Assembly: GCA_043797085.1 (NCBI GenBank) | Contig: JAZDQA010000008.1 | Coordinates: 138,814 to 202,813, forward strand | Direction: 5' to 3' | Origin: Pseudomonadota bacterium | Lineage (GTDB): Bacteria > Campylobacterota > Campylobacteria > Campylobacterales > Sulfurimonadaceae | Length of the DNA: 64,000 nt | Shown here: positions 14,068-34,623 of the stretch, piece by piece | How the letters are laid out: each line of letters begins with the position of its first letter | Numbering within the stretch: the stretch's first letter is position 1 | The notes under the pieces: model-generated | Seen by the model: the letters and a program-made list of their open reading frames with translations, nothing else | What the model was told of the DNA's origin: nothing | The model's database searches: none | Made by a program: the position numbers and the translations under genes

Positions 14068-15261
<1,194 letters not shown>

Positions 15262-15287: not shown

Positions 15288-15303
15288 TGCAAGATTTGTT
15301 CGA
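15288..15303 (-). promoter_or_regulatory. Putative sigma54 (-24/-12)-type promoter of nifS
   Basis: Minus strand tCGAACaaatcTTGCA, 10 nt between the CG and GC dinucleotides. Confidence 0.55.
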
Positions 15304-15317
15304 GAAGGAAGGTCACT

Positions 15318-17225
15318 CTACTTGATCCACTCCGAGTGTGAACGCCAAGTAGCTAACCAATCAGGTAACTCATGCGCTGGCATTGGGCGAGCGATGGCGT
15401 AGCCTTGTGCACATTCACATCCCATTTTTAATAACAGTTCTCCGTGCGCTATGGTTTCTACCCCCTCAGCGATTATATTCAAATGAAATGCATCAGCAAG
15501 GCTGATAATCCCTGATAAGATTGCAAGATCATTGGGATTATTAAACATATCGCGAATAAAGCTTTGATCAATCTTTATCGTGGCGATGGGTAACTGCTGG
15601 AGATACGTGAGAGAGGAATAACCGGTACCAAAATCATCAAGCGAAAATAATACTTCGAACTCTCTGCACGATTGTATGATTTTAGAGATTCGGCTCATGT
15701 CTTCTAGCTTACTGGTTTCCAACACTTCCAGTTCTAAATGAGCAGGGTTTATGTCCGGATGTAATGCTAAAATCTCCTGCAAACGGTTGACGAAATTATC
15801 TTCTTGAAGCTGTCGGGCACTAATATTAACGCTTACGTGAACATCGACTCCCTCGTGATGCCAAAGTTCCATTTGGGTTAAGGCAGCATTGATAACCCAC
15901 TCTCCTAGATCAATTGAGAGTGGATGATCTTCGATCATAGGTAAAAAGTGGGCTGGTTGTAAGAGACCGTTTTGGGGATGTTGCCATCGAATCAGCGCCT
16001 CTACTCCAATAACGACACCTGTTTTCATATTGACTTTTGGCTGATAATAGAGGAGAAATTCAGATAATTGCATTGCTTTATGCATATTTTCTATAAATTC
16101 ATATCTTTCTCGAAGAAGTGTATCTTGCTGTGTATCAAAAACATGATAGCGATTTCTGCCGGCTAATTTGGCTTGATACATTGCTTGATCTGCTTGTCGC
16201 AAGAGTAAATCTGTATCTATTTTTTGAGCTTGCGGGTAAAAAGTGACCCCAAGACTTGCAGTGATTTGTAATAATAGATTATCGACATTTAATGGCTTGG
16301 AAGTTGCCTCTAAAAGACGGATAATCATAGGAATAGCATCTTCGATAGTATTCAAATCAAGTAAAAGTATAACGAACTCATCTCCACCTATTCGAGCGAT
16401 GGTATCCCCCTCTCGAAGGGTTTGTTTCATTTGATTAGAGAGGGTAATGAGGACATGATCTCCTACTTCATGACCATGAGTATCATTGACTTCTTTAAAT
16501 CCATCCAAGTCGAGATAAACAACGGCCAAAGGGAGTCCATGACGTTGGGACTGAGCCATCCCTTGACTGAGGCGATCGGATAGCAGTACACGATTGGGAA
16601 GATTGGTCAGTGCATCGTATTGGGCAATTCGGTTTAATTCATTTTCGTATATCTTTTTTTCGGTAATATCGCTCATTACTAAGCGAACGACGGAAATGTC
16701 ATCACTGTTTTTTGTAACAGTCGTCACTAGATGTGCCCAAAAAGGGGGATTTTCTTCACGAAGCAAACGTAATTCAAAAGAGAATTTTTCATCCGATTTA
16801 AAGAATTTTTTGCGGTACAGATAGTAGTTGTTTTGATCTTCTTTGTGGACAAATTCAGACATGAGCCGTCCAACTAGCTTACTTCGACTAATCCCAAACA
16901 GTACAGCAGCGGTTAAGTTGGCTTCTAAAATTAATCCCGTCTCAGAAAGAGTACAATAGCCTACAGGCGCCAGGTCATAGAGATCAAAATAACGCTCACG
17001 TTGGGCATCAAGCTCTATTTGCGTTTGACGTAATTCCTCGTTTTGCATTTCCAATTCGATTTGATGAACACGTAATTCATGCAGTATACGACCGATTTCT
17101 TCGGGCAACATTTTTTCTAAGTTTTCTCGTGACTCATCCATGTTTTCGCGAGCGATTCTTTCGGCTTGCAAACGTAAGTTTTTTGGTAGGATGTCTACGT
17201 CTTTAAAGTTTCCATCCATAATCAT
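15318..17225 (-). CDS. PAS-GGDEF-EAL protein
   Basis: ELRVHQIELEMQNEEL coiled coil, PAS, RIGGDEF, EALIRW, LDDFGTGYSS. Confidence 0.92.
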   Translation of the reverse strand: MIMDGNFKDVDILPKNLRLQAERIARENMDESRENLEKMLPEEIGRILHELRVHQIELEMQNEELRQTQIELDAQRERYFDLYDLAPVGYCTLSETGLILEANLTAAVLFGISRSKLVGRLMSEFVHKEDQNNYYLYRKKFFKSDEKFSFELRLLREENPPFWAHLVTTVTKNSDDISVVRLVMSDITEKKIYENELNRIAQYDALTNLPNRVLLSDRLSQGMAQSQRHGLPLAVVYLDLDGFKEVNDTHGHEVGDHVLITLSNQMKQTLREGDTIARIGGDEFVILLLDLNTIEDAIPMIIRLLEATSKPLNVDNLLLQITASLGVTFYPQAQKIDTDLLLRQADQAMYQAKLAGRNRYHVFDTQQDTLLRERYEFIENMHKAMQLSEFLLYYQPKVNMKTGVVIGVEALIRWQHPQNGLLQPAHFLPMIEDHPLSIDLGEWVINAALTQMELWHHEGVDVHVSVNISARQLQEDNFVNRLQEILALHPDINPAHLELEVLETSKLEDMSRISKIIQSCREFEVLFSLDDFGTGYSSLTYLQQLPIATIKIDQSFIRDMFNNPNDLAILSGIISLADAFHLNIIAEGVETIAHGELLLKMGCECAQGYAIARPMPAHELPDWLATWRSHSEWIK

Positions 17226-20200
17226 GAGTCTACTCTCTTCATATTGATTTTTGATTCAATCATCCGTTCCGTGGTGGCTACTGCATAGATATTACCGCTT
17301 TCGTTTACTAAAGCAGTAGCCGTCAACCAGACTTCTACTATTTGAGCGTCTTTTCTCATTCGTTGCGTAAATAATGGCTCCAAAATTTCAGCTTGGCTCA
17401 ACTGATGTACTCGCACTAGCGCTTCTTCTTGGAGAGCTTTTGGTATGCGGTCGCATACATTCATTTTTAGCGCTTCCTCTTCACTCCAACCATACATTTT
17501 CACGGCTCCGGGATTCCAGGCAAGAATCGTACCATCCAAGCTTTGAACGGTAATGGCATCATGCGCATCACGTACAACTACGGCTAAACGGAGTAACTCA
17601 TTGACTTTGAGCTGTGCTTCTGCTGCTTCTTTGCGAGCCGTATTGTCTGTACCGATGAGTAAGTAGCCGATAATCTTCTCTTTATCGTCACGTAAAGCCG
17701 TCACAGAAACGACTGCGGGGAAGCGACTGCCATCTTTACGAACATACGTAAGCTCATAAATATCCTCGATCTCACGGGAAGCTTTAAACACCAATGCTTC
17801 AAAGCCCGGGGCTATGGGTGTGTTGAATTCCAAACTTAAACTTTCAGCCCTCTGGATGATTTCTGTCGGATCAGAAATATCCGCCGGTGTGATTTTGTTC
17901 ATCACCTCCGTGGCGGCATAGCCTAACATTTTCTCTGCACCAACGTTGAAAATTTGAATAACTCCCTTTTTATCGGTAGCAATACTGGAGAAATTAGTAC
18001 TGTTAAAAATAGCTCTTTGAAGCGTTCCTGCTTTATAGAGTGCGGCTTCGGCTTCTTTACGGGCGGTATTGTCTATAAAAGTAATGACAGCACCCTCTAT
18101 GACGTTGTCAATCGTTCGGTAGGGGAGGATACGCATCGTGTACCATTTACCAATCACGGTTTGGACATCCAACTCTTTTGGCATCAAGGTATCCAGCACC
18201 GCCTGCACATCATCCACTAGGTTACTATAGCCGATTAAGTTGGAACCAATATGAGAGACAGGTCTTCCTTCATCGCCGGATATAAGGTTGATTATCATTT
18301 TAGCTTCAGGAGTGAAACGGAGAATACGCAGTTGGTGATCCACAAAAACCGTACCAACCCCCGTACCCGCGAGTAAATTGTTCATATCATTATTGGCAAG
18401 GGATAAATCAGAGACTTTGGTTTGCAGTTCGATATTAACGGTCGCCAACTCTTCATTCGCGGATTGCAACTCTTCTTTCGACGTTTCAAGCTCTTCATTG
18501 GTCGATTGTAACTCTTCGTTTATGGATTGCATCTCTTCGTTTGAGGATTTCAGCTTTTCATTGGAGCTTTCCATCTCTTCATTGGCAATTTGAAGATATT
18601 CTTCTTTCGCCCACAACTCTTTTTTCAATAGCTCAATACTAAAATGCTCTTCTTGATTTGATCCATCTTCTTGTGATAATGCTTGGAGGGCCTTTTTTTG
18701 AGCTCTTTGTACCTCTATAATCGGTACTTCTTCAAGAATAATCAAGTACAAAGGCGACTCAGGTGTTACCGTAGGATCGACAGAAACCACTACGGGGCGG
18801 ATGGTGAGATTGATGGTATTGAAATGGCCATTAACATTGATGCTCAAACTAGAGTAGCGAACAATCTCTTTTGAGGAGACGGCTTTATGCAAAGCAATCG
18901 TCAAATCACGCTGTAAGCCTTCACGTGCCATTTTTAGAATATTAATACGGCTGGTTTCACCCACAGGTAATTCCAGATACATTCCCATACGCCCATAAAG
19001 ATAGAGAATGTCACCTTTTATAGTTACAAGTGCTCCTGCGGGTGCAATTTGCTGTAAGAGTGCCTGTTCGGTTAGCTCGCGAAGGGGTAGTTTTCGCTCA
19101 GAGGGCTTTCCTGCTGGCTGAGAAATGACCGTGCGAATGGTGCTTATAGAGGGAAGGAGCTGTTTTATATTAGTCCGTTTTACTCCATAGAGCTGTTCTT
19201 TTCGTTGGTAAATTTTTGCTTTTCGATCCATTACCGAAAATAGGTCGGTAAAATCGCCGATGCATTCGGAGGTGCCTAAAAAAAGGATACCATTGGAATT
19301 AAGTGCATAATGAAATAATGGAAAAAGTTTTTTTTGCAACTCTGACCCCATATAAATGAGAAGATTGCGGCAGGAAATGAGGTCCAGCCTAGAGAAGGGA
19401 GGATCTTTAATAATATTATGCTCTGAAAAAATCAGCATATCACGAATATTTTTATGGATTCGATACATACTGCCATCGGGCTCAGCTGTAAAAAAACGTC
19501 CCAGTCGTTCTGCTGTAACATCAGTTGAAATACTGGATGAAAATAGCCCTGTACGGGCTTTTGCTATTGCTTGAGCATCGATGTCCGTAGCAAAGATCTG
19601 AACCACATGGTGCAATTTCATGGCTTCCATATACTCTGACAAAAGTATTGCTATGGAGTACGCTTCTTCGCCCGTAGAACATCCCGTCGACCAAATTCGA
19701 ATGACACTTCCTTCGGGTTTAGCGATAAAAAGTTTGGGAATGATATATTCTTCAAGTAGCTTAAATGCTTCTGGGTCACGGAAAAAATTGGTGACACCAA
19801 TTAACAAGTCACGAAACAATGCTACTATCTCGGTCGGTGTATTTTGTAAATATTTAACGTATTTGCCTATCTCATCAATTTGGTGAACCACCATGCGTCG
19901 TTCAATACGACGATAAATGGTACTAGGCTTATAGAGAGAAAAATCATGACTAGTTTGGGCACGAAGAAGGATAAAAATTTTCTTGAGCGAATTTTCATAC
20001 TGTAATGTTGGAGAGGTGGGAGTGCGTGGCAGAGTTCCAAACGCATGGGTCACATAGTCTATCAGTTTGAGGGGCATTTCAGAGGGCGTAAGCTCGTAAT
20101 CCACAAGTCCTGTTGCAATGGCACTGCTAGGCATTCCATCGTACTCAGCAGAATTGAGGCTTTGAGCCATCACCATTCCACCTTCTGCCTTAATGGCTTG

Positions 20201-20695
20201 TATTCCTAATGTTCCATCACTGCCAGTACCGGTCAAGATGATAGCGATAGCTTTTTGTGCCTGATCTTGTGCCAAAGAACGAAAAAAGTAATTAATGGGT
20301 AAACGATGACCATGCAGTTCAGTAGGCTCAAAAAGTTGCAGGATTCCATTTAAAATAGCCATATCCTGACCTGGTGGAATGACATAAACACAGTTGGGCT
20401 GTACCGCCATACCATCTTCAACTTCGAAAACTTTCATACTGGTATAGTGGCTGATGAGTTCTGTCAGGATACTTTTATGCTCGGGAGAAAGATGCTGAAC
20501 GAGCACATACGCCATTTCAGAATCAACATTAGCGGGCAAACCTGAAAAGAAAGCCTCAAAAGCCGCTAAACCTCCAGCGGAAGCACCTATGCCTACAATG
20601 GGAAAATTTAATTGGGTATCAGTATCGTAAGGTTCAATGGTATTTTTGGTTTCAGAGAATTGGTCTGGTTGAGCATTCTCCGTTATTACTGTCAT
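17222..20695 (-). CDS. CheB-CheR-coiled coil-PAS fusion protein
   Basis: GASAGG/VQH/GTGSDG CheB triad, IGVTNFFRD, GCSTGEEAYS, ISCRNLLIY CheR motifs, SNEELQS heptads, C-terminal PAS domains. Confidence 0.92.
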   Translation of the reverse strand: MTVITENAQPDQFSETKNTIEPYDTDTQLNFPIVGIGASAGGLAAFEAFFSGLPANVDSEMAYVLVQHLSPEHKSILTELISHYTSMKVFEVEDGMAVQPNCVYVIPPGQDMAILNGILQLFEPTELHGHRLPINYFFRSLAQDQAQKAIAIILTGTGSDGTLGIQAIKAEGGMVMAQSLNSAEYDGMPSSAIATGLVDYELTPSEMPLKLIDYVTHAFGTLPRTPTSPTLQYENSLKKIFILLRAQTSHDFSLYKPSTIYRRIERRMVVHQIDEIGKYVKYLQNTPTEIVALFRDLLIGVTNFFRDPEAFKLLEEYIIPKLFIAKPEGSVIRIWSTGCSTGEEAYSIAILLSEYMEAMKLHHVVQIFATDIDAQAIAKARTGLFSSSISTDVTAERLGRFFTAEPDGSMYRIHKNIRDMLIFSEHNIIKDPPFSRLDLISCRNLLIYMGSELQKKLFPLFHYALNSNGILFLGTSECIGDFTDLFSVMDRKAKIYQRKEQLYGVKRTNIKQLLPSISTIRTVISQPAGKPSERKLPLRELTEQALLQQIAPAGALVTIKGDILYLYGRMGMYLELPVGETSRINILKMAREGLQRDLTIALHKAVSSKEIVRYSSLSINVNGHFNTINLTIRPVVVSVDPTVTPESPLYLIILEEVPIIEVQRAQKKALQALSQEDGSNQEEHFSIELLKKELWAKEEYLQIANEEMESSNEKLKSSNEEMQSINEELQSTNEELETSKEELQSANEELATVNIELQTKVSDLSLANNDMNNLLAGTGVGTVFVDHQLRILRFTPEAKMIINLISGDEGRPVSHIGSNLIGYSNLVDDVQAVLDTLMPKELDVQTVIGKWYTMRILPYRTIDNVIEGAVITFIDNTARKEAEAALYKAGTLQRAIFNSTNFSSIATDKKGVIQIFNVGAEKMLGYAATEVMNKITPADISDPTEIIQRAESLSLEFNTPIAPGFEALVFKASREIEDIYELTYVRKDGSRFPAVVSVTALRDDKEKIIGYLLIGTDNTARKEAAEAQLKVNELLRLAVVVRDAHDAITVQSLDGTILAWNPGAVKMYGWSEEEALKMNVCDRIPKALQEEALVRVHQLSQAEILEPLFTQRMRKDAQIVEVWLTATALVNESGNIYAVATTERMIESKINMKRVDS

Positions 20696-20845
20696 AGGTA
20701 TTTCCCTGTTGTATAAACTTATTACTTATTGATCATAATAAGCTTATACATATTAACTGGCTACCCTTAAGATTGAGCGTAATTGTATACTTTGACAGAC
20801 AAAGCATACAAAAGAGTGAATTCTCTACGGTGATGATACAGAAGC

Positions 20846-22060
20846 TTACGCCTGTACGCTCTCTTCTTTATAAACATAGATAGGTTCGTTACTCGAATCT
20901 TCGATCACCGCTTCGGTGATGGTGAGGCTTTGTAGATTCTTTTTTGACGGACAGCTAAATTGCAACGGCAACATTGCTTCTTCGATAATACTGCGTAATC
21001 CGCGTGCTCCGACACCACGATCGATTGCTTTTTGGGCAACGGCATCGAGGGCTTTGGCTTCAAAGTTCAGCTCGATACCGTCCATATCAAACAGCGCTTG
21101 AAACTGTTTGATGAGGGCATTATCCGGTTCTTGGAGAATCTGAACCATTTGCTCTTTGGTTAGCTCGGTTAGCTGTGCAACGACGGGAATACGTCCGATA
21201 AACTCAGGGATGATTCCATAGTGAACGAGCGCTTTGGCATCAATCTTTTTAGGTTTAACGACGGTTTCGGCAGTGCTTTTGCTAAATCCGACTTTATTCG
21301 ATTTTTTAGTATGGGTATCGGGTACAAGTCCTACGAACGCACCTCCACAGACGAAGAGGACGTGGGTGGTGTTAAACAATACCGTTTCAGTGGTGGAATT
21401 TTTACGGCTCCCTTTGACGGGGACGTAGACTTCTGCCCCTTCTAGGATTTTGAGTAAGCCTTGTTGTACACCTTCACCTGAAACATCACGTCCCATGGTA
21501 GAAGATTCCGATTTACGGGCGATTTTATCAATCTCGTCGATGTAGATGATCCCGCGCTGAGCCAATTCGATGTCATAGTTTGCTGCCGCAAGCAAACGAG
21601 AGAGGATACTCTCAACGTCTTCTCCTACGTAGCCAGCTTCGGTGAGTGCGGTCGCATCGGCAACGGCAAACGGAACTTGCATGATTTTCGAGAGCGATTT
21701 GGCGAGCAATGTTTTACCGCTACCCGTTGGACCTACGAGCATAATGTTGGATTTTTCGAGTTCTACGTTGTTGTAGATCGGGTTTTCAATCCGTTTGTAA
21801 TGGTTGTAGAGAGCAACGGCAAGGACTTTTTTCGCATCGACTTGACCGATGATGTATTTGTCCAAAAACTCAACGATTTTTTCAGGAGTAGGGAGCTGTT
21901 GCTGCATAGCAGAGCGTTGCTCGTACCGTACCTCTTTTTGCAAAATTGCAGAACAGGTGGTGATACACTCATTACAAATATGGGTTGTCTCCGAGGAGAA
22001 CATTTTTTTTACTTCGCTCTGTTTACGACCACAAAATGAGCAGGTTTTTTCAGTATTCAT
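20846..22060 (-). CDS. clpX: ATP-dependent Clp protease ATPase ClpX (nif-associated paralogue)
   Basis: CSFC...CNEC zinc finger, [37 protein letters not shown] loop, GARGLR. Confidence 0.93.
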
Positions 22061-22063
22061 CAC

Positions 22064-22657
22064 TCAATCCTTCGCACTGAATTTAGTCAAAATTGTATCC
22101 GCTAATCCAAACTCGATCGCTTCATGGGCTTCCATGTAGTTGTCACGGTCGGACTCTTTTTCGATGATTTTGGCACTTTTACCGGTTGCCTCGGCTAAGA
22201 TGGCATACAAACGACGTTTGAGATTGAGGATATGTTTCGTATGAATCTCGATGTCGCTCGCCTGACCCGAATACCCGCCCAGTGGTTGATGAATCATCAC
22301 TTCGGCATTAGGGAGCATATAACGATGCCCTTTTTCCCCGCAGGTAAACAGTACCGCCGCCATTGATGCAACCATTCCCATGGCGTAGGTATGCACGGGG
22401 GCATTGATTAAGTTCATAGTATCTAATATGGCTAATCCGCTCATCACTGAACCACCCGGTGAACTGATGTAAACATGAATCGGCTCTTCGGAATCCATAG
22501 CTTCCAAATAAAGCAGTTGAGAGACGACAATCCCCATCATGTGATCATCAATCGCTTCAGTGATAACGATGACACGATCGCCTAAAAGTTTGGAAAACAA
22601 ATCGAAATATCGCTCTCCGCGAGGCGAAACATCTTTAACAGTTGGTAAATATGGCAT
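22064..22657 (-). CDS. clpP: ATP-dependent Clp protease proteolytic subunit ClpP
   Basis: ISSPGG, ASM (Ser), MIHQP (His), RDNYM (Asp). Confidence 0.93.
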   Translation of the reverse strand: MPYLPTVKDVSPRGERYFDLFSKLLGDRVIVITEAIDDHMMGIVVSQLLYLEAMDSEEPIHVYISSPGGSVMSGLAILDTMNLINAPVHTYAMGMVASMAAVLFTCGEKGHRYMLPNAEVMIHQPLGGYSGQASDIEIHTKHILNLKRRLYAILAEATGKSAKIIEKESDRDNYMEAHEAIEFGLADTILTKFSAKD

Positions 22658-22669
22658 CTTAAGCTCCTT

Positions 22670-23500
22670 TTATACAAATGCTTGAATAAATTCTTGAAGT
22701 GACATAGGGATCACTTCAATATTGTGTTTCTCGATAAACTTTTTCTCTTTTTTCCCCAGCTCTTGATCGGTGATGACGTATCCCCCCTCCAAATCAAAGC
22801 TAAGCTCATTGGCAACCATCCGATCGGTATCGTGACCGAAGGATGTCCCTAAAAAGAGATATTTTTTCGCTTTACGGTAGGTTTTGAGTACCTTCGGCAC
22901 GGCAAATCCACCCATCGCTTCGGTAAGCCAATCGACGTAATCGGCATCGGAGATGACAAAGGTCGGATTAGGAAGCGGTGATCCCATCGGTTTAAAGAGG
23001 ATTTTTTCGGCATTATCCAGTACCTCGTCATCTACGAGAAAATACTTTTGATTTTCAACATCGTACTCATACGTTTCATAGCGATTTAGATCACCCATGA
23101 TACGTGATTTTCCGATGATGAGACAGTGCGGTGTAAATGCGAGAAGCTCTTGAAGCTTCGTGTCGCGGTTGGTATCAACGATGTAGCGAGGAAGCATATC
23201 GACTATCGCTTTGTGCAACGGTGTCGGGTCAAACGGCTTGGTATAAATATGATTGATAAGCTGTGTCATATACTCCACACCGCGACGCTGTTCCAAATGC
23301 ATCGCCGCACGTGAGTACTCAAACATGAGGCGTGGTGCCATAGCCCGCCCGCCATTCATCGCCAAAATCAGCGAATCACTGTCATGAGGAACCGCTTCAC
23401 CCTCTTTGGTCATGATTCCCTCAAATACACCTAATCCGAAGTAGGGAATGGTGGTCTGATTGCGTAACTCTTTTTTGATTGTTTCGATTTGTGTATCCAT
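22670..23500 (-). CDS. SIR2-like (SIR2_2) protein of the type found in nif clusters
   Basis: IPYFGLG, DTNRD (cf. TTNYD), KPMGSP (cf. KLHGS), ISDADYVDWL, LFLGTS (cf. LFIGYS). Confidence 0.75.
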   Translation of the reverse strand: MDTQIETIKKELRNQTTIPYFGLGVFEGIMTKEGEAVPHDSDSLILAMNGGRAMAPRLMFEYSRAAMHLEQRRGVEYMTQLINHIYTKPFDPTPLHKAIVDMLPRYIVDTNRDTKLQELLAFTPHCLIIGKSRIMGDLNRYETYEYDVENQKYFLVDDEVLDNAEKILFKPMGSPLPNPTFVISDADYVDWLTEAMGGFAVPKVLKTYRKAKKYLFLGTSFGHDTDRMVANELSFDLEGGYVITDQELGKKEKKFIEKHNIEVIPMSLQEFIQAFV

Positions 23501-23532
23501 CGTGATCCCTTTTGGAACTTTGAATGGAATAT

Positions 23533-23548
23533 TGCATTTTGCGTTCTT
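23533..23548 (-). promoter_or_regulatory. Putative sigma54-type promoter of SIR2-clpP-clpX
   Basis: Minus strand aAGAACgcaaaATGCA, AG-N10-GC spacing. Confidence 0.5.
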
Positions 23549-23630: not shown

Positions 23631-24137
23631 TTACCCGTGACACCCTTTGCCTGTATAACAGCTATTGGCAGCGACGATCTTTGCAAGTGCTTTGTCAATA
23701 CTAAATGGAGCGTTTAGATCACTTAGTATTTCATGGTAGAAGACTGCTCCATCTTTGGAGATAATAAATAGCGATTTGGCAAGTTCTTTGCTAGAAAGTC
23801 GAACACCGTAATAATCCCCGTATGCCTCATCATAATCATATCCGCTTAACCACTCTTGGAGTGTTGGCAATTCATGTTGGTCATTTGCGACGATGAGCGC
23901 TTTGGTAATTCCTCCCAGTGCATTGAGCGAGAGAAGCGTATCCACCTCAGTTAACTGAGAAATGAGTGCTTCATCGATAAATGCTGTACTAATAAGGAGT
24001 TGTGTAAATCCGTTTTGCCCTCCGATGGTAAATGTCTCATCCTTGTGATTTTTAAGGCTCACTTTTTCAGAGGCATAACCGACATCGAGAGGCATATCTT
24101 CAAGATACAGCGTGGATGTGTTGTAATTTATCTGCAA
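23631..24137 (-). CDS. Thiol peroxidase (Tpx)-fold / redoxin-like protein lacking the peroxidatic Cys
   Basis: Resembles Tpx (LDVG, YGDYYGV, LAKSLFIISKDGAVFYHEI); only Cys are in the C-terminal CYTGKGCH; TTG start with AGGAG RBS. Confidence 0.6.
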   Translation of the reverse strand: MQINYNTSTLYLEDMPLDVGYASEKVSLKNHKDETFTIGGQNGFTQLLISTAFIDEALISQLTEVDTLLSLNALGGITKALIVANDQHELPTLQEWLSGYDYDEAYGDYYGVRLSSKELAKSLFIISKDGAVFYHEILSDLNAPFSIDKALAKIVAANSCYTGKGCHG

Positions 24138-24543
24138 TTTCGACTCCTATAATAAAATGGTTCATTGCTTCGTGTATCGTTTTCATAAAGGGAGGAATCT
24201 TATGAATTTTTATCCCGACGTTGCGCATCGCATAAAAGGTATTGAGACAATATTGACCTGTGATGAGATAGTCGCATTTGCCGATGACTTCCAAAAGTGC
24301 GTAATGCTCACTGATGTGGTGAGGATCGAGGCTCTTATCTGTGTCGCAGCTGCTTTCTTTCATCTTTGGATCACACACCATCTCCCCATCGCATTTCTTC
24401 CAAGGGTTAAGTTTGGACCCAATATGCCGATAGCGAATGTCGTTACGTTCTCCGGTAAGCTCATACAGTGCGAACATTATTGCGCTACACGGATTGTAGT
24501 GGTAGACACGCTTGAATGCATCTATCGGTATAGCAACGATCAT
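24100..24543 (-). CDS. NifX/NifB-like (FeMo-co binding fold) protein, divergent
   Basis: MIVAIP...FALYE...CDYLI...GIKI...IHEAM pattern of the NifX/NifB/IssA fold, with an extra Cys-rich insert; AAGGAG RBS before ATG 24543. Confidence 0.55.
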   Translation of the reverse strand: MIVAIPIDAFKRVYHYNPCSAIMFALYELTGERNDIRYRHIGSKLNPWKKCDGEMVCDPKMKESSCDTDKSLDPHHISEHYALLEVIGKCDYLITGQYCLNTFYAMRNVGIKIHKIPPFMKTIHEAMNHFIIGVEIADKLQHIHAVS

Positions 24544-24571
24544 TGTCAGCTCCTTATATTGACTAGATTTA

Positions 24572-24587
24572 TGCAATTTTTATTCTT
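24572..24587 (-). promoter_or_regulatory. Putative sigma54-type promoter of the NifX-like/Tpx-like genes
   Basis: Minus strand aAGAATaaaaaTTGCA, AG-N10-GC. Confidence 0.45.
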
Positions 24588-24683: not shown

Positions 24684-24699
24684 AAGAACGCTATTTGCA
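24684..24699 (+). promoter_or_regulatory. Putative sigma54-type promoter of the nifB operon
   Basis: aAGAACgctatTTGCA, AG-N10-GC. Confidence 0.55.
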
Positions 24700-24773: not shown

Positions 24774-26189
24774 ATGAGCTGTTCATCAACTGGAACTGAA
24801 GCTTTTATGCCCGATGATATTAAGGAAAAGATCCACAATCATCCATGCTATTCTGAGGGTGCCCACCACCACTATGCCCGTATTCACGTAGCGGTTGCCC
24901 CTGCGTGCAATATCCAATGCAATTATTGTAACCGTAAATACGACTGTTCGAACGAGTCACGTCCGGGTGTAACCTCTGAGCGCCTCTCGCCTGTGGAAGC
25001 CGCGAAGAAAGTCATGTTCGTCGGCGGAGAAGTACAACGTATGAGCGTACTTGGGATTGCAGGTCCCGGCGATGCGTTGGCGAATCCTAAAAAGACGTTT
25101 GAGACGTTTGGAATGGTGCGTGAGTTTGCTCCGGATCTTAAACTGTGTCTCTCTACAAACGGATTGGAATTGCCTAATTTTATCGATGAAATGGTCGAAT
25201 ACAATATCGATCATATCACCGTCACCATTAACAGCGTTGATGAGACGGGAGAGATCGGAAGTTTGATTTATCCGTGGATTTTCCATAATAACAAGCGTAT
25301 TTATGGAAAAGAAGCCGCACAAATCCTCCTTGAAAATCAGCTTGAGGGGATGCGTAAATGTGTCGAAAAAGGGATTTTGATCAAAGCCAATTCCGTTTTG
25401 ATCCCAGGTATTAACGATCAGCATCTACCGGAAGTATCCCGCAAACTCAAAGAGATCGGCGTGTTTTTGCACAACATTATGCCTATTCTTTCCGAGCCTG
25501 AGTTCGGAACCAAATTTGCCCTCGATGGCGTTCCTAGTGCGACCGATCAAGAGCAAATGGCAGCTCAAGAAGCATGCGGTCATGATATGAAACTCATGCA
25601 GCACTGCCGTCAGTGCCGTGCGGATGCCGTAGGGCTTATCGGTGAAGACCGTGGCGGAGAGTTTACGAAAGATACGTTTGCAGGGCTTAGTTTCGATGAG
25701 CTACAAATCAAATACGATCTCGAAGCGCGTCAAGAAGCACAAGCGAAGATCGAAGAATTCCGATTCTTCCTTGATCGTGCAAATGACCGTGTTCGAAAAG
25801 AAAAAGAAGAACTCAGCTCCAACGGTGTGACAATCCTCGTTGCGGTTACGACTGCGGGCGAGGGGATGATTAACATGCACTTCGGAAGCGTTAAAGAGTT
25901 CTTGATTTACGAAGCAGGGGACAAAGGTATACGATTTATCCATCATCGTAAAGTCGATGCAGAATATTGTGCAGGTCCAGACGGTACTAATCCGCTCGCT
26001 CCGATTTTAGAGAAACTCAAAGACGTACAGATGGTTCTGACTGCAAAAATCGGCGGATGCCCGCAAGATGATCTAAAAGCAGCCGGAATTGTGGCAGATC
26101 AAAGCTATGCGTATGAGCCGATTGAGATTTCGGTACTGAAAGCATCACGCAAATATTTCGGTGTGGATGAAAACGCGGAAGTGAATTAA
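24774..26189 (+). CDS. nifB: Nitrogenase cofactor biosynthesis radical SAM protein NifB, with C-terminal NifX-like domain
   Basis: HPC, RIHVAVAPACNIQCNYCNR, ESRPG, AGPGDAL, HCRQCRADAVG; C-terminal HFG domain. Confidence 0.97.
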   Translation: MSCSSTGTEAFMPDDIKEKIHNHPCYSEGAHHHYARIHVAVAPACNIQCNYCNRKYDCSNESRPGVTSERLSPVEAAKKVMFVGGEVQRMSVLGIAGPGDALANPKKTFETFGMVREFAPDLKLCLSTNGLELPNFIDEMVEYNIDHITVTINSVDETGEIGSLIYPWIFHNNKRIYGKEAAQILLENQLEGMRKCVEKGILIKANSVLIPGINDQHLPEVSRKLKEIGVFLHNIMPILSEPEFGTKFALDGVPSATDQEQMAAQEACGHDMKLMQHCRQCRADAVGLIGEDRGGEFTKDTFAGLSFDELQIKYDLEARQEAQAKIEEFRFFLDRANDRVRKEKEELSSNGVTILVAVTTAGEGMINMHFGSVKEFLIYEAGDKGIRFIHHRKVDAEYCAGPDGTNPLAPILEKLKDVQMVLTAKIGGCPQDDLKAAGIVADQSYAYEPIEISVLKASRKYFGVDENAEVN

Positions 26190-26193
26190 TACC

Positions 26194-27309
26194 ATGGCAC
26201 TCATAAATGACACTACTTTGCGCGACGGAGAGCAAGCTGCTTACGTCGCATTCAATACCGAGGAAAAAATCCGCATCGCAACATTGCTGGATGCATGCGG
26301 AGCGGATGAACTCGAAATTGGTATTGCGGCAATGGGTGTCAAAGAACGCGAGGATATAAAAACGCTTCTTTCTCTGGGTTTGAGAGCGCGAATGATGACG
26401 TGGAATCGGATGAAGATGGAGGATCTTGATGCATCGCTTTCTTGCGGTGTGCAAGCGGTTGATTTATCGATTCCCATTTCGGATCTTTTGATCGATGTCA
26501 AATTCGGCGGAAGTAAAATAAAAGTATTGCACGAACTCGAACGTGTCGTTACGGCTGCCACTCGCGAAGGACTGTTTGTCTGTATTGGCGGCGAAGACAG
26601 TTCACGGGGCAGTTTTGAATTTATCAAAGATGTGATGGAACTTTCCCGTGAATGCGGAGCACAGCGTTTCCGCTATTGCGATACGATCGGTATTATGACA
26701 CCTACACAAACGTATAAAGCGGTCAAGTCACTGACGGATTTAAATCTCCTCCCGATAGAAATGCACACGCACAACGATTTTGGACTCGCCAACGCCAATG
26801 CCCTCAGCGGCATCGACGCAGGGGCAATCAGTATGAACACGACGGTCATGGGTTTAGGCGAGAGGGCGGGTAATGCTTCATTTGAACAGATTCTCATGGC
26901 ATTGAAACATCTTTACGGCGAGGCACGCCCCATTGACCCTCTCTTGATACGAAATCTGGTTGGAACGGTAGCAAGTGCCGCTAACATGACACTTGCACCC
27001 AATGCCCCTATCGTGGGAGAACATATCTTCGCCCACGAGAGTGGCATTCATGCAAGCGGTATGATGAAAGACTCCCATGCGTATGAACCGTATTCAGCAT
27101 GTGAAGTAGGATTGGAAAGTTCGTATCCTATCGGTAAACACTCTGGAAGTGCAACGATCCGCTACCATCTCAAACGGATGGGAATCAGTGCGGATAACAG
27201 CATCTTAAGTGATCTTCTCCCAAAAATCCGAGAGATCGTTACTTCACGTAAGCGGGTATTGGATGTATTCGAACTTAAATCTCTCTATCAGGATGCAGCA
27301 TGTATATAG
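26194..27309 (+). CDS. nifV: Homocitrate synthase NifV
   Basis: DTTLRDGEQ, EDSSR, HTHNDFGLA, GLGERAGNA, HESGIH, GKHSG; directly after nifB. Confidence 0.9.
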   Translation: MALINDTTLRDGEQAAYVAFNTEEKIRIATLLDACGADELEIGIAAMGVKEREDIKTLLSLGLRARMMTWNRMKMEDLDASLSCGVQAVDLSIPISDLLIDVKFGGSKIKVLHELERVVTAATREGLFVCIGGEDSSRGSFEFIKDVMELSRECGAQRFRYCDTIGIMTPTQTYKAVKSLTDLNLLPIEMHTHNDFGLANANALSGIDAGAISMNTTVMGLGERAGNASFEQILMALKHLYGEARPIDPLLIRNLVGTVASAANMTLAPNAPIVGEHIFAHESGIHASGMMKDSHAYEPYSACEVGLESSYPIGKHSGSATIRYHLKRMGISADNSILSDLLPKIREIVTSRKRVLDVFELKSLYQDAACI

Positions 27310-28127
27310 GGTGGTTAAAGTTTGTTGATGTTCCTGAATTGATTAAAATTTCCGAAGAGACGGGCTGGCTGCTGGATGGTTATCATGTCAAACTCATGAT
27401 GATGCATGCCCCGCATTTGTGTTATGGAGCATACGATGAGGGGGTTCTTGTCGGTGCTGTGATGGCAATCGAGTTTGAATCCTCCGCAATGATAAAATAT
27501 TTCATGGTTAAACCCACACATCAAAAGCAGGGGATCGGACGGCGGCTTTTTAATACCCTCTTTGGTGTTTTAAAAGAAGAACACCCATCGCTGTATTTGC
27601 ACGCCAATCCGCATCTTCAAACTTTTTTCGAGCAGAGCGGTTTTAAAGCGGTTATGGAAGTAGGGCGATATCTGAATGTCGGCAAAGTCCCTCCGTTTAG
27701 TTTTACCAATGCACAAGCCAAAGAGCTTGACGGCGGAAACTTCGACGCGATGATTCGCAAAATTGATTTTGAGACGTTCGGTGAAGATCGGATGGGCTTT
27801 ATGCTCGATGAGATGGAACGTAACAGTTCGCTGAAATTTGCTCTTCCAAACTCGTTTCAGCACTCAAGCGTTATCAATGCGCGCGGAGTTTATCTGGGAC
27901 CATGGCAATGCCGTGAGGGGTTTGAAGAGGAAGCGGAAAAAATGATGCAGGGAGTTTTGTATTTTAGAGGATTAAAGAAAGTCCTCTCCGATATTCCAAT
28001 GGGAAATACAAAAGCCGTTGCATTGTACGAGAAATACCACTTTCAACAAAAAGGGACGTTTATCCACATGTCGTATGGTGAAGCTCATGCTGTCAAATTT
28101 GAAAATATCTACGCATTTTCACTTTAA
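27300..28127 (+). CDS. GNAT-family acetyltransferase (two-domain, YitH-like)
   Basis: VKPTHQKQGIGRRL acetyl-CoA motif A; second degenerate domain (LGPW, NTKAVALYEKYHF). Confidence 0.75.
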   Translation: MYIGWLKFVDVPELIKISEETGWLLDGYHVKLMMMHAPHLCYGAYDEGVLVGAVMAIEFESSAMIKYFMVKPTHQKQGIGRRLFNTLFGVLKEEHPSLYLHANPHLQTFFEQSGFKAVMEVGRYLNVGKVPPFSFTNAQAKELDGGNFDAMIRKIDFETFGEDRMGFMLDEMERNSSLKFALPNSFQHSSVINARGVYLGPWQCREGFEEEAEKMMQGVLYFRGLKKVLSDIPMGNTKAVALYEKYHFQQKGTFIHMSYGEAHAVKFENIYAFSL

Positions 28128-28695: not shown

Positions 28696-28974
28696 ATGCC
28701 TACCAAAGAAGAAATCTTAGCCCACGAAATCTGTGAATGCGGCGGCAAGAGTGTTGCCGATGCTATCAAAATATTTCAAGATACCTCCCTTCCTTATAAA
28801 AAAGCCAAAAAACTCGTTACCGAGTGTGACAAGAGCTGCTGCCGTGCTGCACTTCTACGAATATTTGATATGGCGTATACGGGTAAATTTGATTACGATG
28901 AGATCGATCGACTCATTCAATTACGCAACGATAAACTGGGCGAAATACTCGAGAGGATGAAAAGTGGGCGCTGA
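28696..28974 (+). CDS. Small BFD-like putative [2Fe-2S] protein
   Basis: ICEC...CDKSCC spacing resembling the BFD / NifU central domain; AAGGAGG RBS. Confidence 0.5.
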   Translation: MPTKEEILAHEICECGGKSVADAIKIFQDTSLPYKKAKKLVTECDKSCCRAALLRIFDMAYTGKFDYDEIDRLIQLRNDKLGEILERMKSGR

Positions 28975-29425
28975 AATAACCATTCGAGACGCTCATTATG
29001 ATGATGTTGGCGTAATGGCTGCTTTGTTGGTAGAGTTGTTTCTTATAGAAGACGATTTTAGCATTGACATTGAGAAACAAATACAGGGGTTAGAACTCTT
29101 ACTCGAAACCCAAAACTGCCTTGTTTTGGTTGCTGAAATTTCCGGACAAGTGATAGGAATGATTTCCATGCAAGGTCTTGTTTCTACTGCGATGGGTGAA
29201 CGTGTAGGTTTAATCGAAGACATGATCGTATCGCATGAGTTTCGCGGTATCGGAGTTGGTCGATTACTTCTTGGTTCTATGCTTGAACATGCAAATAGTC
29301 TTGGGTATGGACGTATTGCATTGGGAGCGGATAGACGAAATGAACGAGCTATTAATTTTTATTCTAAGTTTGGATTTGAGACGAGCAATATGGGGTTGAT
29401 GTATTATCTACCCCGTGCTCCATAA
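28964..29425 (+). CDS. GNAT-family N-acetyltransferase
   Basis: IEDMIVSHEFRGIGVGRLLL, NERAINFYSKFGF. Confidence 0.88.
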   Translation: MGAEITIRDAHYDDVGVMAALLVELFLIEDDFSIDIEKQIQGLELLLETQNCLVLVAEISGQVIGMISMQGLVSTAMGERVGLIEDMIVSHEFRGIGVGRLLLGSMLEHANSLGYGRIALGADRRNERAINFYSKFGFETSNMGLMYYLPRAP

Positions 29426-30204: not shown

Positions 30205-31128
<924 letters not shown>

Positions 31129-31137
31129 GTAAAACGG

Positions 31138-31153
31138 TTCCTCTTTTGAGGAA
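31138..31153 (+). terminator. Intercistronic hairpin after nifH (mRNA stability element or partial terminator)
   Basis: TTCCTC-tttt-GAGGAA, 10 nt after the nifH stop. Confidence 0.45.
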
Positions 31154-31230
31154 TCTTCAATGGCTGTCATGTAAATGACCAATAACATCTTGTTAATAAT
31201 GAAAAGAAAACAACAGAAAAAGGAGATTAG

Positions 31231-31590
31231 ATGTTTGTATTAGGTTTTCACTTCCCAGCTTCAATGGGGAATCAAGTTCCAGACGAATTAGTTGCAGAAA
31301 AAATTGCCGATGTTGATATCAGTGACGTTAAAGAGATCAAACTTTTGATGGGTACTAAAGAGAGAGATAAAGAGTGGTTGAGCTACACGAACAAAGATAC
31401 GTTCTTGTTCCGTGCAATGGTTCATTACTTCAAAGAAGAGAACCCAGATAGTATTCAAAAATACATGATCTACATGAACCGTTACCAAATGTCTGCTATC
31501 TCTAAACGTGTTGATGCAGCAGATGATGAGACAATGAAATTGTGTCATAACTTAGATTCGATGGAACAATTCCGCATCGAAATCGCGTAA
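31231..31590 (+). CDS. Hypothetical protein between nifH and nifD
   Basis: Strong AAGGAG RBS, 119 aa, codon style like the flanking nif structural genes; family not recognised. Confidence 0.8.
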
Positions 31591-31604
31591 GGAAGAGGTG
31601 TACT

Positions 31605-33074
31605 ATGGGTCCAGAAACACTAGAAGCTAAACAAAAAGCGGCCATTGAAGAGATCTTAAAAGCGTATCCTGAGAAAGCGGCGAAAAACCGTGAAAAACAT
31701 CTCGGTGTCGGATCTCCAAATGATGAAAATCAAAAAACGTGCGGTGATGTCCGTTCAAACAAAAAAACCGTTCCCGGAGTTATGAGCCAACGCGGTTGTG
31801 CTTATGCAGGTTCTAAAGGGGTTGTATGGGGTCCGATCAAAGATATGATTCATATCTCTCACGGTCCTATCGGGTGTGGTCAATATAGCCGTGCAGGTCG
31901 TCGTAACTATTATATCGGTGTAACCGGTGTTGATACGTTCGTAACGATGAACTTTAGCTCGGATTTCCAAGAGAACAACATCGTTTTCGGTGGAGACAAA
32001 AAATTGGGTAAATGTATCGATGAAATCGAAGAACTTTTCCCATTGAATAACGGTATCTCTGTTCAATCAGAATGTCCAATCGGTTTGATCGGGGATGATA
32101 TCAACGCGGTAGCAAAAATGAAAGCGAAAGAGATCGGTAAAACGATCGTTCCTGTAAACTGTGAAGGTTTCCGTGGGGTTTCTCAATCACTTGGTCACCA
32201 CATCGCAAATGACACGATTCGTGACTATATCTTTGATGGCGATTTGAGTCACATCGATATCAGTGATGTGACACCGACTGAGTATGACGTTGCGATCATC
32301 GGGGACTACAACATCGGTGGTGACACATGGTCAAGCCGTATCCTTCTCGAAGAGATGGGTCTACGTGTTGTAGCACAATGGTCAGGCGATGCGACAATGA
32401 AAGAGATGGCATTGACACCTAAAGTTAAATTGAACTTGCTTCACTGCTACCGTTCAATGAACTACATCAGCCGTCACATGGAAAAAGAGTTCGGGATTCC
32501 TTGGATCGAATATAACTTCTTTGGACCATCACAAACCATCAAATCACTTCGCAAAATTGCGTCGTTCTTTGACGAGAGCATCCAAGCTAAATGTGAAGAA
32601 GTTATCGCTAAATATCAACCAATGATCGATGCGGTTATTGCAAAATATAAACCTCGTCTCGAAGGTAAAACAGTAATGTTGTTCGTCGGCGGTCTTCGTC
32701 CTCGTCACGTTATCGGTGCTTACGAAGATTTAGGTATGGAAGTAATCGGAACAGGATATGAGTTCGCTCATGATGATGACTACAAACGTACTAAAGAAGA
32801 GATCTTCCGTTCAACTGTTATCTACGATGACGTTAACGAGTATGAGCTTGAAGCATTTGTAAAAAAACTTCAACCTGACCTAGTAGCTTCTGGGATCAAA
32901 GAGAAGTATGTATTCCAAAAAATGGGTCTTCCGTATCGTCAGATGCACTCATGGGATTACAGCGGACCTTACCACGGGTACGACGGATTTGCGATTTTCG
33001 CACAAGATATGGATTTAGCAATTAATTCACCTGTATGGGCGCACTCAAAAGCACCATGGGAAAAGGAAGGTTGA
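31605..33074 (+). CDS. nifD: Nitrogenase MoFe protein alpha chain
   Basis: [36 protein letters not shown] (FeMo-co Cys), GGLRPRH, QMHSWDY (FeMo-co His). Confidence 0.99.
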
Positions 33075-33078
33075 GACT

Positions 33079-34623
33079 ATGCAAGAAGTAGAAAAAATTG
33101 TAAACGGGAAAGACCTGTTTAAACGCCCTGAGTACAAAGAAGTACTCGCAAACAAAAAACAATTCGAATCGTCTATGCTCGCAATCAACCCTGCGAAAGT
33201 AGATGAAATCGCTGAGTGGACTAAATCATGGGATTACCGTGAGAAAAACTTGGCCCGTGAAGCGGTTACCGTCAATCCTGCAAAAGCATGTCAGCCTCTT
33301 GGGGCTGTTATGGTTGCACTCGGGTTTGAGGGTACTATGCCTTACGTTCATGGTTCTCATGGATGTGTTGCGTATTTCCGTTCATACTTTACCAAACACT
33401 TCAAAGAGCCGACTCCATGTGTTTCTGACTCTATGACTGAAGATGCTGCGGTATTCGGTGGATTGGTGAATATGAAAGAGGGTCTTAAAAACTGTGCAGC
33501 AGTGTATAAACCTAAAATGATCGCGGTTTCTACTACTTGTATGGCAGAAGTTATCGGGGATGATTTACAAGCGTTTATCATTGCGGCTAAAGAAGAAGAT
33601 AAAGGTGAGTTTTTAGCAGCTGATTATCCAATTCCTTATGCACATACTCCTTCATTCGTAGGAAGTCATATCACTGGATATGACAACATGATGCACGGTA
33701 TCATGTCACAGCTTACAGAAGGACAAAAAGGTGAAACAAAACAACGTATCAACATCATCCCTGGTTTTGAAACGTATATCGGAAGCCTTCGTTCAGTAAA
33801 AACTATCGTAGAAGCGTTCGGCACAGACTATATCATGTTGGGTGACCACTCTGATCAATGGGATATGCCTGCCGGTAACTATGAAATGTTCCAAGGCGGA
33901 ACAAAATTGGATGATGCAAAAGATTGTATCAATTCAAGTGCAACTATCAGTTTGCAAAAATATGCAACGGCTAAAACCATGAAAATGGTCGAAAAACGTT
34001 GGAAACATGCAGGTGGATTCTCTAACCCAGTCGGTCTCAAAGGGACAGATGAGTTCGTTATGAAACTTGCAGAATTAACAGGAACCGAAGTTCCACAAAA
34101 ACTCAAAGTAGAGCGCGGCCGTTTGGTTGATGCTATGCAAGATAGCTATCCGTACATGCACGGTAAAAAATTCGCTATCTGGGGTGATCCTGACTTCCTA
34201 ATCGGTGCAGTATCATTCCTTCTTGAGATGGGTGCTGAGCCTACTCACGTTCTTTGTCACAATGCACCAAACGGTTGGGAAGCAGAGATGAGAGCAATGC
34301 TCGATACTTCTCCTGCAAAAGACAGTTTGAATGTATGGGCTGGTAAAGATTTATGGGCAATGCGTTCACTTCTCTTCACTGAGCCTGTTGATTTCATGAT
34401 CGGTAACAGCTACGGTAAAGAGTTGATGCGTGACACTGGTACTCCGTTGATCTACATCGGATTCCCAATCTTTGACCGTCACCACCTACACCGTTACTCT
34501 ATCAGCGGGTACGATGGAGCGTTGAACCTTCTTACTTGGATCACGAACAAAGTTCTTGACCAATTGGATGAAGATACCAAAGGTATCGCAACAACTGACT
34601 ATTTCTTCGACCTCGTTCGCTAA
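33079..34623 (+). CDS. nifK: Nitrogenase MoFe protein beta chain
   Basis: NPAKACQPLGA, HGSHGCVAYFR, TTCMAEVIGDD, HTPSF, GFPIFDRH, C-terminal DLVR. Confidence 0.99.
   Translation: MQEVEKIVNGKDLFKRPEYKEVLANKKQFESSMLAINPAKVDEIAEWTKSWDYREKNLAREAVTVNPAKACQPLGAVMVALGFEGTMPYVHGSHGCVAYFRSYFTKHFKEPTPCVSDSMTEDAAVFGGLVNMKEGLKNCAAVYKPKMIAVSTTCMAEVIGDDLQAFIIAAKEEDKGEFLAADYPIPYAHTPSFVGSHITGYDNMMHGIMSQLTEGQKGETKQRINIIPGFETYIGSLRSVKTIVEAFGTDYIMLGDHSDQWDMPAGNYEMFQGGTKLDDAKDCINSSATISLQKYATAKTMKMVEKRWKHAGGFSNPVGLKGTDEFVMKLAELTGTEVPQKLKVERGRLVDAMQDSYPYMHGKKFAIWGDPDFLIGAVSFLLEMGAEPTHVLCHNAPNGWEAEMRAMLDTSPAKDSLNVWAGKDLWAMRSLLFTEPVDFMIGNSYGKELMRDTGTPLIYIGFPIFDRHHLHRYSISGYDGALNLLTWITNKVLDQLDEDTKGIATTDYFFDLVR

Follow-up and report, generated by a model that had tools for sequence, protein, structure and literature searches.

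The window analyzed here, a stretch of 64,000 nucleotides on contig C8 of a 2.4-Mb genome assembly, contains, within a region of nitrogen fixation (nif) genes, a second set of Clp protease genes, clpP2 and clpX2, located downstream of a gene encoding a SIR2-like protein (SIR2L). At the level of the promoter motif, the three genes constitute an operon of the nif regulon in which a specialized ClpX, here accompanied by its own ClpP, is coupled to a catalytically degenerate SIR2-fold protein. The joining of a second ClpXP to a SIR2-fold protein within the nif set suggests dedicated control of the levels of nitrogenase-related proteins. We give roughly even chances to the reading that the operon encodes a ClpXP protease dedicated to nif and partnered by a SIR2-fold protein that is not catalytic. 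The components themselves are known; what was not found in the papers searched is the operon fusion, with SIR2L and clpX overlapping from stop to start in most of the phylum, the conserved change in the RKH loop of ClpX2 and the addition of a ClpP in the Sulfurimonadaceae. How the amounts and lifetimes of Nif proteins are set after transcription is poorly understood, and the question matters for the transfer of nitrogenase to other hosts. The best matches of the proteins encoded in the window are named Sulfuricurvum or Sulfurimonadaceae. The operon and its promoter element are arranged as follows.

23533-23546, minus strand: promoter element GAACGCAAAATGCA, of the -24/-12 type, in the context AAGAAC-N6-TGCA, 32 nucleotides 5' of the SIR2L ATG.
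22670-23500, minus strand: SIR2-like gene (SIR2L), 276 amino acids; SIR2 fold, PnfA family most likely; the GxG and Asn motifs are present, and Met172 stands in place of the catalytic His.
22064-22657, minus strand: clpP2, second ClpP, 197 amino acids, with the Ser-His-Asp motifs intact.
20846-22063, minus strand: clpX2, second ClpX, 405 amino acids from a GTG, with an ATG 3 nucleotides further in.

An initial annotation, made from the sequence alone, had described the three genes as tightly spaced, and the spacing was confirmed with a minor correction. The SIR2L stop codon is separated from the clpP2 ATG by 12 nucleotides rather than 13, and this gap contains the sequence AAGGAG. GTG ATG comes immediately after the TGA of clpP2, which makes the gap between clpP2 and clpX2 0 or 3 nucleotides. 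The same arrangement was followed in 80 public SIR2L loci. ClpX2 lies no more than 900 nucleotides downstream of SIR2L in 63 of these loci, and in 56 of the 70 in which the sequence extends 1.5 kb or more. Thirty of the 80 loci include ClpP2, and the ClpP2 and ClpX2 genes overlap at 29 of 30 junctions. In loci where no ClpP2 lies between them, the SIR2L and ClpX2 genes overlap from stop to start (TAATG, ATGA) at 30 of 33 junctions. At least one of NifB, NifV, NifS, NifH, NifD and NifK is encoded in the available flank of 55 loci, and nifS directly follows ClpX2 in 11 of 27 ClpP2-bearing loci.

The co-occurrence of these genes with nitrogenase was evaluated in 301 Campylobacterota genomes, each at least 90% complete. 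SIR2L was found in 31 of the 32 nifD-positive genomes and in none of the 269 nifD-negative ones. The ClpX2 type, called at E <= 1e-130, was present in 25 of the nifD-positive genomes and, again, in none of the 269 without nifD, and thus the tie of the gene set to nif, on which the initial annotation had depended, is strict. SIR2L and ClpX2 are adjacent by coordinates in 22 of the 24 genomes that have both, and these genomes belong to several families. The ClpP2 type is confined to nine of the 301 genomes, all of the Sulfurimonadaceae, where it always lies between SIR2L and ClpX2. Seven NifD-positive genomes do not have the ClpX2 type; five of them belong to a single genus (g47) and in the other two SIR2L is in pieces. 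Three SIR2L pieces were seen in G081 (C7:2307-3133), in which nifD is intact, and in G393 (C1:1431039-1431668), in which nifD is partial. The sole nifD-positive genome without SIR2L (G324) has its ClpX2-type gene about 8 kb from nifD on contig C1, and this nifD contains an in-frame TGA.

Among 121 genomes of the family, SIR2L was found in 51, NifD or NifE in 53 and both in 50. Three genomes have nif genes only, two of which are just 76% complete, and one (G019) has SIR2L only, with an open reading frame (ORF) resembling NifK or NifN on the same 10-kb contig. The identity of SIR2L across the genera of the family is 75-93%.

A sigma-54-like motif shared with nifH, nifB and nifS had been noted in front of SIR2L. 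The pattern GAACRMNNNWTGCA was matched five times in the window, compared with 0.46 matches expected, and none of 100 shuffled sequences reached five. Four of the five matches precede nifS, SIR2L, nifB and nifH. Besides the SIR2L element, the following two were placed.

24686-24699, plus strand: nifB promoter motif, the same motif as that of SIR2L, preceding the divergent nifB at 24774-26189.
15288-15301, minus strand: nifS promoter motif, the same motif as that of SIR2L, preceding nifS at 14068-15252.

In the whole genome the pattern was matched 18 times, most often before nif-type genes; 12 of these matches are on contig C8, which represents 8% of the genome. The sites on C8 also precede nifU-like, flavodiiron-like and other genes, as judged by their N-termini, and a PII-like gene. 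The core of the SIR2L promoter, AAGAAC and TGCA, is invariant in 11 aligned relatives. The shared motif is conserved in relatives, with the qualification that the GG doublet typical of sigma-54 promoters is altered: in the four nif-type promoters of the window it reads A-G or C-G (xGAAC). At the same position upstream of SIR2L, the loci of Arcobacter, Sulfurovum and their like have the canonical GGAAC-N6-TTGCAT, which argues that the SIR2L element is a sigma-54-type promoter in which the GG doublet has changed within the family. The fifth match in the window (54823-54836, plus strand) has the canonical GGAAC and is located about 585 nucleotides 5' of a gene for a 1447-residue CheB/CheR-PAS histidine kinase (55421-59764).

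Contig C8 carries a NifA-like gene, scoring 526.6 bits against a cut-off of 528.85, and two full rpoN genes. The second rpoN, outside the window at C8:87592-88890 (L116:593-1891), scores 318 bits with TIGR02395 (cut-off 277); it lies within the nif region and is itself preceded by a GAAC-N6-TGCA site. The other rpoN is near C8:34034-34495. A nif-dedicated sigma-54 could account for the A/C-GAAC that replaces GGAAC in the nif promoters of the family. The upstream activator sequence of NifA, TGT-N10-ACA, was not found before SIR2L and accompanies one of the 12 motif sites only, that of nifB, so the dependence of the operon on NifA is inferred. No terminator was found in a consensus scan of the interval between SIR2L and the gene upstream of it, orf168, and the local fold was not better than that of shuffled sequences (z -1.37); the case for a separate SIR2L transcript start thus comes from the promoter motif. 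In a groundwater RNA library (X5), a single contig of 243 nucleotides was identical to positions 20775-21017, at the 3' end of clpX2, which is too little for a claim of expression. Three other runs (X1-X3) are guessed RNA libraries, of which X1 and X3 were flagged as probably DNA. Parts of the operon that are left uncovered by the RNA data carry no meaning.

ClpX2 was readily recognized by the family models, with 549.3 bits for NF003745 (cut-off 359), 510.8 bits for TIGR00382 (cut-off 370.75) and 53.5 bits for zf-C4_ClpX. The protein keeps the C4 zinc finger, the Walker A and B motifs, the GYVG pore loop and, at the ClpP-docking position, a VGF loop of the IGF type, and thus all the elements required for unfolding proteins and for docking on ClpP. 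It matched solved ClpX with 434.6 bits. In the alignment, the RKH loop reads GSRKNSTTE in ClpX2 and GGRKHPxQ in both solved ClpX and the housekeeping ClpX of the same genome, as the initial annotation had anticipated when it pointed to GSRKN in place of GGRKH. Comparison of 69 ClpX2 proteins linked to SIR2L revealed that RKH is absent from all of them. The loop in these proteins is KGSRK, then N or S, followed by a stretch rich in Ser and Thr; a few have KGGRKN or KGAKK. The zinc finger and the GYVG loop are present in all 69, and the IGF-type loop is [V/M/L]GF in 66 and VGL in three. Since the altered RKH loop is kept in every linked copy, ClpX2 probably recognizes a set of substrates different from that of the housekeeping ClpX.

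ClpP2 scored 232.7 bits with PF00574 and 259.3 bits with NF001368 (cut-off 249), and fell below the equivalog cut-off of TIGR00493 (239.4 vs. 308.6). It matched a canonical solved ClpP with 229.6 bits, and the SM, HQP and DRD motifs of the Ser-His-Asp triad are all in place in the alignment. Both window proteins have separate housekeeping paralogues, as had been supposed. The housekeeping clpX is located on another contig beside mreB, has the GGRKH sequence and encodes a protein 47% identical to ClpX2, while the housekeeping clpP, also on another contig, follows tig and its product is 48% identical to ClpP2. The window pair thus resembles housekeeping ClpXP of the E. coli type (8e91, 6po1) in having the full ClpX architecture, a canonical ClpP and the catalytic and docking motifs, but differs from it in the GSRKN loop, the nif-type promoter and the restriction to nifD-positive genomes.

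The assignment of the first gene to the SIR2 family was upheld by both a domain model and a predicted structure. SIR2L matched SIR2_2 (PF13289) with 28.4 bits (cut-off 24.5) over residues 153-264. An AlphaFold (AF2) model calculated from 40 homologues had a predicted local distance difference test (pLDDT) score of 95.6. Its closest folds were defence-type SIR2 domains, aligned over the full length of the protein: ThsA (Z 19.6; 238 residues aligned with a root-mean-square deviation of 3.1), KomC (Z 17.9) and Avs5 (Z 16.9). DSR2 was matched by Foldseek at 6e-10, and the classical sirtuins scored lower (Z 11-12). The profile of the SIR2L family gave no match at E <= 1 when compared with all solved chains, sirtuins included, and the tie of SIR2L to SIR2 structures is therefore one of fold comparison only. 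Although the defence SIR2 domains ThsA, DSR2, Avs5 and KomC are the best structural neighbours of the entire 276-residue protein, SIR2L differs from them in that it has no catalytic His and no sensor or effector partner, is tied to nif and has no profile match to the solved chains.

The sequence KPMGS, residues 170-174 of SIR2L, had been taken as a sign that the catalytic His is lost. The genome encodes two canonical SIR2_2 paralogues with GxG, TTNYD and xHGS motifs, the last being VHGS in one and IHGS in the other. In a joint alignment with the VHGS paralogue in register, the His of this paralogue falls on Met172 of SIR2L and its Asn on Asn111; likewise, D109, N111 and D113 of SIR2L align with TTNYD, and G22 and G24 with GTG. 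The loss of the His stands, but it is not a local peculiarity, since none of 40 family members has His in this column; 26 have Met, 11 have Leu, and Phe, Tyr and Ala occur once each. In the same 40 sequences Asn111 is found in 37 and Gly24 in 33, and there is no variation at Gly22, Asp109, Asp113 and Gly173. In sirtuins, the GxG and Asn (TN-D) motifs serve in dinucleotide binding. As judged from the alignment and the model, SIR2L has retained its fold and some of the nucleotide-binding scaffold, and the general base is lost throughout the family. Because the GxG and Asn motifs are kept and the catalytic His is lost, SIR2L probably serves as a binding protein rather than an NADase or deacylase.

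The two His-bearing paralogues, 434 and 438 residues long, are encoded at C11:159903-161207 (L111:955-2259) and C4:12988-14304 (L112:1072-2388). They are likely to be defence genes unrelated to nif. The copy on C4 adjoins a putative ATPase gene, an ORF that by eye resembles the SMC/RecF type.

The SIR2L family comprises 157 representatives at 50% clustering. A branch designated P0134, 37% identical to the SIR2L of the window, has more than 3100 proteins, including Rhodocyclaceae proteins named 'SIR2 family'. The names obtained from a cluster look-up and the ESM Atlas were all of the 'SIR2 family' kind and came from Campylobacterota and Pseudomonadota. Gamma- and alphaproteobacteria have homologues with 41-45% identity (E <= 4e-68, relative to the candidate stretches), two of which are oriented divergently from nifHDK. 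There was no Pseudomonas stutzeri or Azotobacter entry among the 120 listed matches of a second homologue search.

Proteins of this kind have been encountered in nif clusters before. In the accessible part of Yan et al. (2010), PST1325 (PST_1325) of P. stutzeri A1501 is named pnfA, depends on NifA and sigma-54 and is described as found only in diazotrophs. In the non-polar mutant, nitrogenase activity at 0.5% O2 was 23% of the wild-type level, and the transcription of nifH did not change; the mutant phenotype depends on oxygen and nitrate, and oxygen protection or electron supply was proposed. The same text places a Clp gene, PST1358, induced 8.4-fold, in the same nif island. Among other nif 'SIR2 family' proteins, as given in the available portions of the respective papers, ZMO1821 of Zymomonas mobilis lies between nifA and nifHDK and is raised under nitrogen fixation, Rcc03262 of Rhodobacter capsulatus was undetected in a nifA1-A2 mutant, and a SIR2-2 protein, encoded beside nifH, is listed for Thalassolituus (23 of 25 genomes). 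The Zymomonas and Thalassolituus papers speculate on deacetylation by this protein, a label against which the family-wide absence of the catalytic His argues.

SIR2L most likely belongs to this PnfA or nif 'SIR2 family' group, PST1325 itself having been compared by description only. The likeness consists of a SIR2-family protein of about 280 residues in nif clusters, a putative promoter of the NifA/sigma-54 type and restriction to diazotrophs; furthermore, pnfA is described as divergent from nifHDK, as are the two proteobacterial SIR2L homologues mentioned above. The difference is that the gene in the PnfA group is solitary or accompanied by hemerythrin or nifT, whereas in Campylobacterota the translation of SIR2L is coupled to that of a dedicated ClpX and, in the Sulfurimonadaceae, also to that of ClpP. 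No later work on pnfA was found in a literature search.

A nif-linked ClpX is also known. The levels of NifB and NifEN in A. vinelandii are under the control of ClpX(P), according to the parts available of PMC3916325 and the title of Martinez-Noel 2011. Compared by description only, the ClpX2 of Azotobacter vinelandii and PST1358 are like the window protein in that each is a second ClpX in a nif cluster, expressed with the nif genes. The window ClpX2 differs from that of Azotobacter in its N-terminal zinc finger, its conserved RKN/RKS loop, its operon with SIR2L and, within the family, its own ClpP. To our knowledge, Azotobacter ClpX2 is devoid of the N-terminal zinc finger. The suggestion in the initial annotation that the operon may represent an undescribed route for controlling nitrogenase has to be withdrawn in part: because SIR2L most likely falls in the named PnfA group and a nif-linked ClpX2 is already known, the route is not entirely undescribed. 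No literature combining clpX, nifB and Campylobacterota was found, and the fusion of SIR2L and clpX in one operon with the conserved loop change was not found in the literature searched, among the matches listed.

If the operon does encode a nif-dedicated ClpXP with a SIR2-fold partner, SIR2L, clpP2 and clpX2 would belong to the nif regulon and be transcribed together from a promoter of the NifA/sigma-54 type. During the synthesis of nitrogenase, the products would most likely degrade or remodel certain Nif proteins. Judging from Azotobacter ClpX2, NifB and NifEN may be the substrates, and the SIR2-fold protein, through a presumed contact with ClpX2, may select, gate or protect them. A prediction of the ClpX2-SIR2L complex, run without controls, scored 0.00 against a mark of 0.32 and is evidence neither way. 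A bolder version of this proposal, which we consider rather unlikely, is that a PnfA-type SIR2 pseudo-enzyme and the nif-linked ClpX2 form one machine, a metabolite-gated proteolytic switch specific for nitrogenase. SIR2L would then bind a metabolite of the dinucleotide or ADP-ribose type and, in response, either hand particular Nif proteins to ClpX2, with or without ClpP, or shield them from it. Should this be true, the operon fusion of the Campylobacterota would be a 'Rosetta stone' linking two nif accessory genes that had been orphans. SIR2 proteins of the PnfA type, known since 2010 and required for full activity of nitrogenase, occur widely in nif clusters, and in one mutant three quarters of this activity is lost. 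The coupled SIR2L-ClpX2 pair offers a concrete and cheap hypothesis, that of a partnership with a dedicated AAA+ protease, and both genes, as well as the genetics, are available in P. stutzeri and Azotobacter.

Several observations speak against a dedicated ClpXP with SIR2L as its partner. Known ClpX adaptors use a conserved terminal peptide, and no such peptide is present in the SIR2L alignment. The choice of NifB and NifEN as possible substrates is made by analogy with another phylum only. In two genomes (G169 and G359) SIR2L and ClpX2 are on different contigs, the five g47 genomes, which represent one Campylobacterota genus, have SIR2L and no ClpX2 type, and G324 has the ClpX2 type near nifD and no SIR2L. 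In all seven proteobacterial loci, which include Neptunomonas, Motiliproteus, Sedimenticolaceae, Lamprocystis and Cohaesibacter, SIR2L lies beside nifHDK, nifSV or nifB and has no ClpX next to it, and a hemerythrin gene often follows SIR2L (three loci). Moreover, of five proteobacterial genomes with SIR2L, three have one ClpX, one has two and one gave no match. The function of SIR2L cannot depend strictly on ClpX2, since SIR2L is found beside nifH without a second ClpX in several Proteobacteria.

It is accordingly possible, though we lean against it, that the genes are co-regulated and functionally separate. SIR2L/PnfA would then have a nif role of its own, for example in oxygen protection or electron supply, ClpX2 and ClpP2 would be a general booster of proteostasis for the costly Nif proteome, and the operon would serve joint expression only. 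The occurrence of SIR2L with no second ClpX among Proteobacteria and within a single genus of Campylobacterota, the hemerythrin gene in three proteobacterial loci and the peroxidase-like orf168 that is the usual upstream neighbour of SIR2L all fit this explanation, as does the dependence of the pnfA mutant phenotype on oxygen and nitrate in the accessible part of the report cited above. However, the overlap at 30 of 33 junctions and the adjacency in 22 of 24 genomes are tighter than co-regulation requires, and the conserved change in the ClpX2 loop points to specialized rather than general substrates. ClpX2 might instead act mainly as a ClpP-independent unfoldase or chaperone during nitrogenase maturation, for example in the insertion of cofactors or clusters, with SIR2L as co-chaperone. 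In most families of the Campylobacterota the SIR2L-ClpX2 pair has no ClpP of its own (30 of 57 loci with full-length ClpX2), a NifX-like protein, nifB and nifS are among the neighbours, and ClpX-type unfoldases are known to participate in cofactor insertion in mitochondria. This explanation appears improbable in view of the ClpP-docking loop of the IGF type, kept in 66 of 69 linked ClpX2 proteins, and the insertion of a ClpP2, catalytically intact as judged by its motifs, between SIR2L and clpX2 in the Sulfurimonadaceae.

The possibility that SIR2L is an active deacylase or ADP-ribosyltransferase acting on nitrogenase or NifA was also considered. Deacetylation was raised in the available text of the Zymomonas and Thalassolituus papers. 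The SIR2 fold with its GxG and Asn motifs is retained, and genes for GNAT acetyltransferases lie nearby, following nifV in the window and, in 10 of 30 loci, immediately following a ClpX2 that is not preceded by ClpP2. However, His is found in none of the 40 sequences at the catalytic column, no solved sirtuin was matched by the profile at E <= 1, and the titles of solved DSR2 entries name an H171A variant, so that an active enzyme seems very unlikely. We take H171A to be the catalytically dead form of DSR2 and the corresponding His to be required in ThsA. An anti-phage defence module, consisting of a SIR2 NADase and a protease that merely happens to be located in the nif region, would agree with ThsA, KomC, Avs5 and DSR2 being the closest solved folds. 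It was rejected, and we regard it as scarcely credible, on the strength of the strict co-occurrence with nif, the nif-type promoter and the missing catalytic His. In addition, PADLOC detected only a noise-level match of SIR2L to PDC-M30A (15.5 bits, E 0.0016), no match for ClpP2 and generic AAA matches for ClpX2, and 75-93% identity of SIR2L across the genera of the family is unlike a defence gene with fast turnover.

The remaining genes around the operon are as follows.

23631-24137, minus strand: orf168, thiol-peroxidase-like, in Campylobacterota usually the gene next upstream of SIR2L.
24100-24576, minus strand: orf158, a small Cys/His-rich protein, weakly NifX/NafY-like (Nitro_FeMo-Co).
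24774-28127: nifB, nifV and a GNAT gene, divergent from the SIR2L operon.
30214-34623: nifH, an ORF of 119 amino acids, nifD and nifK.

The orf168 gene is found directly upstream of SIR2L in 50 of the 80 public loci. Its family profile matched solved Tpx over the full length at 1.3e-12. In the alignment the protein has no peroxidatic Cys, and it ends in an invariant C-terminal tail, YTGxGC(H), which the model shows as disordered (pLDDT below 50 at residues 163-168). The likely true start of orf158 is the ATG at 24543, behind AGGAG. PF02579 was matched by 8 of 17 relatives of orf158, with a best E of 3e-4, and the search gave no match for the window copy; Cys77, His87, His91 and Cys110 are invariant. 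Between clpX2 and nifS, at 15318-20695 on the minus strand, are a CheB-CheR-PAS gene (1157 amino acids) and a PAS-GGDEF-EAL gene.

Three of the public loci have none of the six Nif proteins in their flanks and instead a NifA-like gene, scoring about 500-519 bits, just upstream. These are L074 from Arcobacter iocasae, L089 from an Arcobacteraceae metagenome-assembled genome and L101 from Sulfurospirillum sp. The NifA-like gene directly precedes SIR2L in L101 and the orf168-SIR2L pair in L074 and L089, and in all three it is preceded by aldo-keto-reductase-like and fumarate-reductase-flavoprotein-like genes. In L089, retron/PtuA-like genes are inserted between SIR2L and ClpX2.

The GNAT acetyltransferase genes of the window are located at 27300-28127, where the gene overlaps the end of nifV, and at 28964-29425 (plus strand). 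GNAT genes recur around SIR2L loci (L063, L064, L070, L074 and others), which deserves mention beside a sirtuin-fold protein.

A search of the genome for the DraT family gave no match, and the control genomes gave none either, so absence of DraT is not established. The initial annotation had also reported that NifI is missing from the window. This holds for the window itself, but a divergent PII-like gene with the same promoter motif is present on the same contig about 34 kb before it, at C8:104421-104726 (L117:622-927). It scores 67.8 bits with PF00543, far below the GlnB equivalog cut-offs, and is divergent from a gene whose N-terminus is nifU-like; its product may be a regulator of the PII type specific for nif. 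The 119-residue ORF between nifH and nifD (31231-31590, plus strand) had no Pfam match at E <= 0.1, and a homologue occupies the same position in locus L022.

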